From Escherichia phage NHEP29: 64,000 nt of DNA. Numbering within the stretch: position 1 is the stretch's first letter; the number at the start of each line of letters is the position of its first letter. The stretch lies in sequence record PQ511150.1; one strand, written 5' to 3'. Below are positions 53,823 through 54,209 of the stretch, in pieces. The translations under genes and the position numbers were made by a program. The notes beneath the pieces are model-generated. The model was not told the origin of the DNA and searched no databases. It saw only the letters and a program-made list of their open reading frames with translations.

Positions 53823-54209
53823 TTATAGGTTCGGTTTATATGATTTAAATGTTTCGAATTCGCCTTTATTCATAAGAGCTTTGAATTCGTCAGGACGCAT
53901 AGCTTTGTCGTCGATAATCCAATCATATACTGGTTTATGTGTTAGCAAATTATGGTACTTCAAACCAATGTTTGCCAAGTTCTGAATCAGACTTGGGAGA
54001 ATGTCAATCGCTATACGTCCAGGACCTACTGACTTCATACCGCGAGCAGTGTAAAGCGTTATGGTATGCCCTGCATCATACAGGGCATTAATGGCAGACA
54101 CCATTTCGACGTCTGGCTTGAAGTTCACGTAATCACGATTGTTATTCCACTCTGTTATACAATCGTCGACATCAAAACAAAGATTAAGCATGTTTTCTAC
54201 ACGATGCAT
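53823..54209 (-). CDS. HAD-superfamily phosphatase (small)
   Basis: HAD motif I LCFDVDDCIT near N-terminus; start codon choice uncertain (ATG 54209 shares 1 nt with upstream stop). Confidence 0.6.
   Translation of the reverse strand: MHRVENMLNLCFDVDDCITEWNNNRDYVNFKPDVEMVSAINALYDAGHTITLYTARGMKSVGPGRIAIDILPSLIQNLANIGLKYHNLLTHKPVYDWIIDDKAMRPDEFKALMNKGEFETFKSYKPNL

Follow-up and report, generated by a model that had tools for sequence, protein, structure and literature searches.

The stretch analysed here, a 64-kb window of 64,000 nucleotides from Escherichia phage NHEP29 (PQ511150.1), carries on its minus strand an open reading frame (ORF) at 53823–54224 that corresponds to 133 amino acids when counted from its first ATG. 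Read from the second ATG, the ORF gives a coding sequence of 128 amino acids ending in a TAA stop codon (53825–53823), in agreement with the ORF of about 130 residues delimited in the original prediction, which had been made from the letters of the DNA alone. In a PDB sequence search, all of the residues read from the second ATG (128/128) were identical to those of PDB 9IQW, the title of which names the phage HY126 encoded D-arabinose 1,5-diphosphate phosphatase AfhF; the protein also corresponds to RB69 gp51 (NP_861741.1). Very probably, therefore, the gene encodes AfhF, that is, a cap-less, Mg2+-dependent HAD phosphatase that converts D-arabinofuranose 1,5-bisphosphate to D-arabinofuranose 1-phosphate by removing the 5-phosphate. 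This reading is based on a sequence that equals that of the crystallised enzyme and on the motifs, fold, and gene context described below, and it takes the substrate, the Mg2+ dependence, and the order of steps from the literature or the PDB title.

The protein was placed in a family by means of NCBIfam, PHROGs, the PDB sequence search, and a fold search, since Pfam was silent. A Rossmannoid HAD fold was found, as would be expected of the minimal HAD phosphatase originally proposed, and the profile search suggested at that time for the HAD subfamily returned NCBIfam TIGR01689 (EcbF/BcbF capsule biosynthesis phosphatase, HAD family) with an E value of 4.3e-13 and 49.3 bits. Further matches were 1XPJ, a Vibrio cholerae structural-genomics protein of unknown function (30% identity, E 5e-10), and PHROG 1238 (E 5e-43), whose family label, "phosphoheptose isomerase", is misleading. 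The assignment thus goes beyond chance: a DxD motif would count for little by itself, unlike the homology to 9IQW, 1XPJ, TIGR01689, and PHROG 1238. On sequence grounds, the protein is a minimal, cap-less HAD phosphatase of 128 amino acids.

The catalytic motifs, numbered from the 54209 start, were judged on 20 phage-type sequences and 60 cellular or distant ones. The segment LCFDVDDCIT, in which a DxDx(T) nucleophile motif had been recognised near the N-terminus, occupies residues 10–19, and both of its aspartates are in place, D13 and D15 being invariant in the phage-type sequences and present in 58/60 and 59/60 of the cellular or distant ones, respectively. Motifs II–IV were also found, with T54, K92, and the D100–D101 pair, together with D96, each kept in no fewer than 54 of the cellular or distant sequences (D101 in all 60, D100 as Asp in 56, and D96 as Asp in 54).

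The HAD gene lies between the U32-family gene and the 561-amino-acid nucleotidyltransferase/kinase gene, all on the minus strand, in a tightly packed, co-directional cluster running from 56711 to 50164, which encodes the SIS isomerase, the nucleotidyltransferase/kinase, the HAD protein, the 5-hydroxy-dCMP (5hodCMP) synthase, a glycosyltransferase, and a nucleotide kinase; the order is the same in related phages. This context bears out the proposal that the HAD protein acts with the SIS isomerase and the nucleotidyltransferase/kinase in a sugar-activation pathway. The SIS gene product matched the NCBIfam families TIGR00393 KpsF/GutQ (2e-32) and KdsD (7e-31), in each case under the curated cut-off. 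The AfhE-like protein matched Pfam NTP_transferase (8.5e-10, residues 3–99) and NCBIfam nucleotidyltransferase families, with weak Pfam matches to kinase families at residues ~308–409, and the 5hodCMP synthase is near-identical to PDB 9IQC. The surrounding genes of the window are of the T4-type replication kind (DNA polymerase, UvsX, helicase, clamp, and clamp loader). Moreover, the region 50100–56800 is 98–98.6% identical to more than 150 genomes of Mosigvirus (RB69-like, T4-like) coliphages; no record in the phage collection was identical to the window DNA, which therefore represents a separate isolate of Mosigvirus. Compared with AfhF of Escherichia phage HY126, the protein shares the 128 residues, the position in the gene cluster, and the HAD fold, with no difference detectable at the protein level, the window DNA being ~98% identical to the closest Mosigvirus genomes in the database.

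Features of the AfhF locus in the window and of the U32 gene in two relatives
Feature	Position	Strand	Remarks
AfhF / RB69 gp51 orthologue, HAD phosphatase coding sequence, 128 amino acids	53823..54209	minus	second ATG; stop codon included
Ambiguous N-terminus, ATGs at 54224 / 54209 / 54191	54174..54224	minus	sequence context
HAD motif I, DVDDCIT (D13, D15, Cys17)	54153..54173	minus	aligns with DLDGTLT of 1XPJ
HAD motif II region, ITLYTARG (T54, R56)	54039..54062	minus	T54 and R56 invariant
HAD motif III, K92-P93	53931..53936	minus	K92 invariant (phage-type); 59/60 K, one R (cellular/distant)
HAD motif IV, D96...D100-D101 (YDWIIDD)	53907..53924	minus	all three Asp invariant in the phage set
SIS-domain arabinose-5-phosphate isomerase (RB69 gp55)	56076..56711	minus	Pfam SIS 1e-10; PHROG 5670
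AfhE-like bifunctional enzyme (RB69 gp52:53), N-terminal sugar-1-phosphate nucleotidyltransferase + C-terminal kinase	54209..55894	minus	
U32-family protein (RB69 gp50)	52608..53768	minus	Pfam Peptidase_U32 9.5e-11; cluster member in enterobacterial phages
Thymidylate-synthase homologue, dCMP 5-hydroxylase (5hodCMP synthase, RB69 gp48)	51613..52329	minus	E 8e-161 to PDB 9IQC/9IR2
Putative DNA arabinosyltransferase 1 (RB69 gp46:47)	50714..51613	minus	PHROG 3891; annotated glycosyltransferase in NRG-P0074; PMC13326640 Table 1
Thymidylate-kinase-like nucleotide kinase (RB69 gp45)	50164..50712	minus	PHROG 761, 1.3e-44; PMC13326640 Table 1
U32 gene loci in relatives	L081 3483-4894; L082 3492-5002		

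In the proposed pathway, the phage SIS isomerase would convert host ribulose-5-phosphate to arabinose-5-phosphate, C1 of which would be phosphorylated by the C-terminal kinase domain of the AfhE-like neighbour to give arabinose-1,5-bisphosphate, and AfhF would then remove the 5-phosphate, leaving arabinose-1-phosphate. According to the general HAD mechanism, from which the roles of the residues are inferred, an aspartyl-phosphate would form on D13 with D15 as the general acid/base, the phosphate would be bound by T54 and K92, and Mg2+ would be held by D100/D101. The N-terminal nucleotidyltransferase domain of the AfhE-like protein would subsequently make UDP-arabinofuranose, from which the phage glycosyltransferases would put arabinofuranose on 5-hydroxycytosine in the phage DNA, and the arabinosylated base would shield that DNA from host nucleases. 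The route to ADP-heptose comprises GmhA (a SIS isomerase), HldE (a kinase/nucleotidyltransferase), and GmhB (a HAD phosphatase acting on a 1,7-bisphosphate), and the AfhF pathway mirrors it as its pentose counterpart. GmhB, the D-glycero-D-manno-heptose 1,7-bisphosphate 7-phosphatase of ADP/GDP-heptose synthesis, nonetheless shows only 11–12% identity with AfhF and acts on a heptose rather than a pentose, AfhF being ~50 residues shorter; the two are functional analogues only.

The gene, its product, structure, and role have already been published, and the original prediction is thus a correct rediscovery with one mechanistic error. RB69 gp51 is given as the AfhF analogue in section 27 of PMC13326640, a 2026 NAR paper on RB69 and DLP3, in which, according to the part of its text based on He et al. 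2026 (Nat Chem Biol), AfhF depends on Mg2+ and dephosphorylates arabinofuranose-1,5-bisphosphate to arabinofuranose-1-phosphate. The same part of the text gives the order for the HY126 protein as arabinose-5-phosphate to arabinose-1,5-bisphosphate by the AfhE kinase first, followed by arabinose-1-phosphate by AfhF. It also has the gp55 SIS isomerase making arabinofuranose-5-phosphate from ribulose-5-phosphate, and the nucleotidyltransferase domain of AfhE (gp52:53) making UDP-arabinofuranose. Removal of the 5-phosphate from an arabinose phosphate, as originally proposed, agrees with the 9IQW title and with section 27. By the same sources, the substrate is the bisphosphate instead of the arabinose-5-phosphate once assumed, and the kinase acts first, contrary to the proposal that the 5-phosphate is taken off so that the anomeric kinase can act; that order is an older hypothesis surviving in Table 1 of PMC13326640. 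The published cluster produces the UDP-arabinofuranose with which 5-hydroxycytosine is arabinosylated in phage DNA, the base being made as 5-hydroxy-dCMP by the thymidylate-synthase homologue of the cluster (PMC13326640). AfhF thus serves to provide the activated sugar for this modification. Arabinosyl hypermodification blocks many restriction enzymes and shapes the sensitivity to other defence systems (PMC13326640, PMC13390438), and DNA hypermodification is relevant to both phage therapy and phage engineering. Our literature search gave nothing on AfhF beyond PMC13326640, the Thanatos paper making no mention of a homologue.

Several points weigh against the assignment of AfhF as set out above. 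The TIGR01689 score lies under the curated cut-off of 162 bits, and the protein would be a relative of the EcbF/BcbF subfamily rather than a member of that narrow subfamily; TIGR01662 (HAD-IIIA) scored 14.6 bits (E 0.026; curated cut-off, 44.6 bits), and the Pfam search of the AfhF protein matched no family even at E ≤ 10. The fifth position of motif I is Cys17 (D-V-D-D-C) in place of the canonical Thr foreseen in the DxDx(T) pattern and carried by at least 90% of the homologues in the phage-type alignment; Cys17 is a tolerated deviation. The substrate and the step order rest on the PDB title and on the secondary summary of He et al. 2026 in PMC13326640. Moreover, the entry for gp51 in Table 1 of that paper reads 'dephosphorylates Araf5p to Ara', and the paper is inconsistent within itself, the kinase entry of Table 1, 'phosphorylates Ara to Araf1p', standing against the bisphosphate order of section 27.

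Since the substrate and the order have this basis, a small probability is kept for a phosphatase that turns arabinose-5-phosphate into free arabinose, from which an anomeric kinase would then make arabinose-1-phosphate. The two entries of Table 1 describe such a route, and small cap-less HADs are often promiscuous. We nevertheless consider it improbable: the PDB 9IQW title gives D-arabinose 1,5-diphosphate as the substrate, the text of PMC13326640 on the identical HY126 protein orders the bisphosphate before the 1-phosphate, and the release of free arabinose would squander a phosphate bond. The architecture, in addition, parallels that of the GmhA/HldE/GmhB pathway, the phosphatase of which acts on a bisphosphate. 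The reading of the gene as AfhF is also favoured by the recurrence of the trio of isomerase, kinase/nucleotidyltransferase, and HAD protein, at 51–61% identity, in a distant T4-like contig (L002).

The cellular relatives of AfhF were examined by scanning prokaryotes with one genome for each species, which yielded 79 loci, 73 of which (L003–L075) were analysed as cellular homologues, 29–42% identical to AfhF. Almost none of these 73 had an AfhE-like kinase/nucleotidyltransferase beside it, and the idea of a broad bacterial use of the same arabinose module was therefore dropped. A NeuB-type synthase was found within 6 kb of the HAD gene in 36/73 loci, and an ATP-grasp gene lay directly upstream of it in 23/73. 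In nine loci, from Chitinophagales/Sphingobacteriales, the HAD gene, a KdsD-like SIS gene, and KdsA followed one another consecutively, and at least three loci had the HAD protein fused to a CTP_transf_3 (CMP-sugar-acid cytidylyltransferase) domain. These contexts suggest that the cellular mini-HAD relatives form an unnamed family of sugar-acid-phosphate phosphatases, and they are what speaks for the view that the phage protein, too, acts on a longer sugar acid phosphate, such as Kdo-8-phosphate or nonulosonate-9-phosphate. Such a substrate is, however, highly improbable for AfhF. KdsA and NeuB homologues were not found in the phage cluster, the identical protein is characterised on the arabinose bisphosphate, and an extra loop, together with differences at many positions that are otherwise conserved, sets the phage clade apart from the cellular one.

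Indeed, positions such as R25 and H91 are conserved within the phage clade and within the cellular clade but differ between the two, and 1XPJ and the TIGR01689 relatives lack both these phage clade-specific residues and the extra loop at about residues 60–67; cellular relatives of this type stand in sugar-acid (NeuB/KdsA) contexts and not beside an AfhE-like gene. KdsC and the KDN-9-phosphate phosphatase, cap-less HADs of the YrbI family, resemble AfhF in taking the terminal phosphate off a sugar acid phosphate, a substrate with a tail derived from a sugar phosphate, but belong to a separate HAD subfamily, with marginal Foldseek matches (1k1e and 3e81, E 0.05–0.4). From these comparisons, we infer that the AfhF clade is a phage branch of a family of sugar-acid-phosphate phosphatases, its specificity having shifted to a pentose bisphosphate. 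A possible but doubtful extension is that AfhF is a neofunctionalised phage branch of the widespread 1XPJ / EcbF-BcbF mini-HAD family, the cellular members of which would be unrecognised Kdo-8-phosphate or nonulosonate-9-phosphate phosphatases replacing KdsC-type enzymes. The common trait would be an arabino-configured tail with a terminal phosphate, since C4–C8 of Kdo-8-phosphate derive from arabinose-5-phosphate, and R25, H91, and loop 60–67 would have been added for the anomeric phosphate. A nucleotide or polynucleotide phosphatase not directed at sugars, of the kind of 5'(3')-deoxyribonucleotidase or the T4 Pnkp-like 3'-phosphatase, is to be given almost no weight: similarities are found only at the level of the general HAD fold (11–13% identity), the protein does not have the kinase domain that accompanies the HAD 3'-phosphatase domain in T4-type polynucleotide kinase/phosphatase, and both the surrounding genes and the characterisation of the identical protein favour sugar metabolism.

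AfhF has homologues in 374 phage records, and in 119 the protein identity reaches at least 99%; among the hosts are Escherichia, Acinetobacter, Klebsiella, Serratia, Proteus, and Yersinia. In contig L002 (3514–8562), the whole cluster is present at 46–69% identity (SIS, kinase/nucleotidyltransferase, HAD, 5hodCMP-synthase-like, glycosyltransferase, and kinase genes), without a U32 gene; this 167-kb contig belongs to a T4-like phage, although it is filed in the genome bin of a 'bacterium'. Weaker mini-HAD matches (32–38% identity) were found in cyanophages (H120, H122, and H123). The match in Prochlorococcus phage P-SSM2 (H120, 239326–239643) overlaps features annotated as a nucleotidyltransferase and a carbohydrate kinase, and that in Sf-CH5 overlaps a feature annotated as a nucleotidyltransferase; the cyanomyophage mini-HAD, kinase, and nucleotidyltransferase may represent a split version of the same three-activity module.

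The start codon had been called ambiguous, with three in-frame ATGs within 33 nt, and indeed ATGs are present at 54224, 54209, and 54191, the first and the last 33 nt apart. The ambiguity is real, yet largely settled in favour of the second, 54209. The A of this ATG is common with the TAA stop codon of the upstream gene (TAATG), GGGAA is located 9–13 nt upstream, and MHRVEN, with which the 54209 start begins, opens both the 9IQW construct and the 128-amino-acid NCBI protein cluster (106 member sequences). The 54224 ATG was discarded as a start codon, since it falls within the final codons of the gene upstream, is not preceded by a Shine-Dalgarno-like sequence, and serves as the start neither in the PDB construct nor in the NCBI protein cluster. 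In other genera, many homologues begin where the third ATG lies here (length, 119–121 amino acids), and in phage NRG-P0074, where a homing endonuclease gene is inserted upstream, the N-terminus of the HAD protein is swapped for MKPLH. The first ~8 residues are therefore dispensable, and the ambiguity thus carries little functional weight. Promoter- and terminator-like sites in 52300–56900 numbered 13, against 15.2 expected from shuffled sequences; with no excess of them, transcription signals play no part in this argument.

The U32 gene next to AfhF has 221 phage homologues, all with at least 80% identity, and the hosts or genera among the matches listed are all Enterobacterales or Shewanella; Acinetobacter is outside the ten most frequent genera, though 57 Acinetobacter phage records have the HAD gene. 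In Klebsiella phage KLB31 and Erwinia phage Virsaitis27, the U32 gene is immediately followed by a genuine type II chorismate mutase gene (Pfam CM_2, 1.3e-9 and 1.7e-11, respectively). The U32 enzymes TrhP and RlhA carry out the prephenate-dependent C5 hydroxylation of U and C in RNA, an oxygen-dependent alternative also existing for U (PMC6599085, PMC5727448). Because a chorismate mutase follows the U32 gene and TrhP and RlhA use prephenate, the analogy points to a possible role of the phage U32 protein in making 5-hydroxycytosine without O2, as a backup to the O2- and flavin-dependent synthase. PMC13326640 lists the U32 protein only as a "sugar or heterocycle reductase", without a link to hydroxylation. 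In the window, the slot taken by the chorismate mutase in other genera holds an ORF of 79 amino acids (52372–52611, minus strand), which overlaps the end of the U32 gene. A diverged chorismate mutase was considered and rejected, as the product had neither a CM_2 match nor BLAST similarity to the KLB31 enzyme; its homologues were confined to Mosigvirus, and AlphaFold2 predicted a two-helix hairpin with low confidence (pLDDT 65.7, pTM 0.36).

Public labels for the AfhF equivalents ('phosphoheptose isomerase', 'polynucleotide kinase', and 'capsule biosynthesis protein') are wrong or uninformative. The first, given by PHROG 1238 and many GenBank records, is a mis-annotation: the fold is HAD, and Pfam returned neither SIS nor any other match for the protein. 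The equivalents of the nucleotidyltransferase/kinase are likewise mislabelled 'dCMP deaminase' or 'GlmU'. A TTG-start ORF of 93 amino acids on the plus strand (53704–53985), which covers the intergenic region and the 3' portion of the HAD gene in antisense orientation, is probably spurious. Between the SIS isomerase and nucleotidyltransferase/kinase genes lies an ORF for a strongly hydrophobic product of 47 amino acids (55936–56079, minus strand), and a 144-nt ORF is annotated in the same slot in NRG-P0074, KLB31 ('contains transmembrane domain'), and Virsaitis27; a membrane peptide would be unexpected in a sugar pathway located in the cytoplasm. In some relatives, homing endonuclease genes flank the HAD gene on one side or the other, that is, between the nucleotidyltransferase/kinase and HAD genes in NRG-P0074 (L001 5567–6328) and between the HAD and U32 genes in Virsaitis27 (L082 2852–3490).
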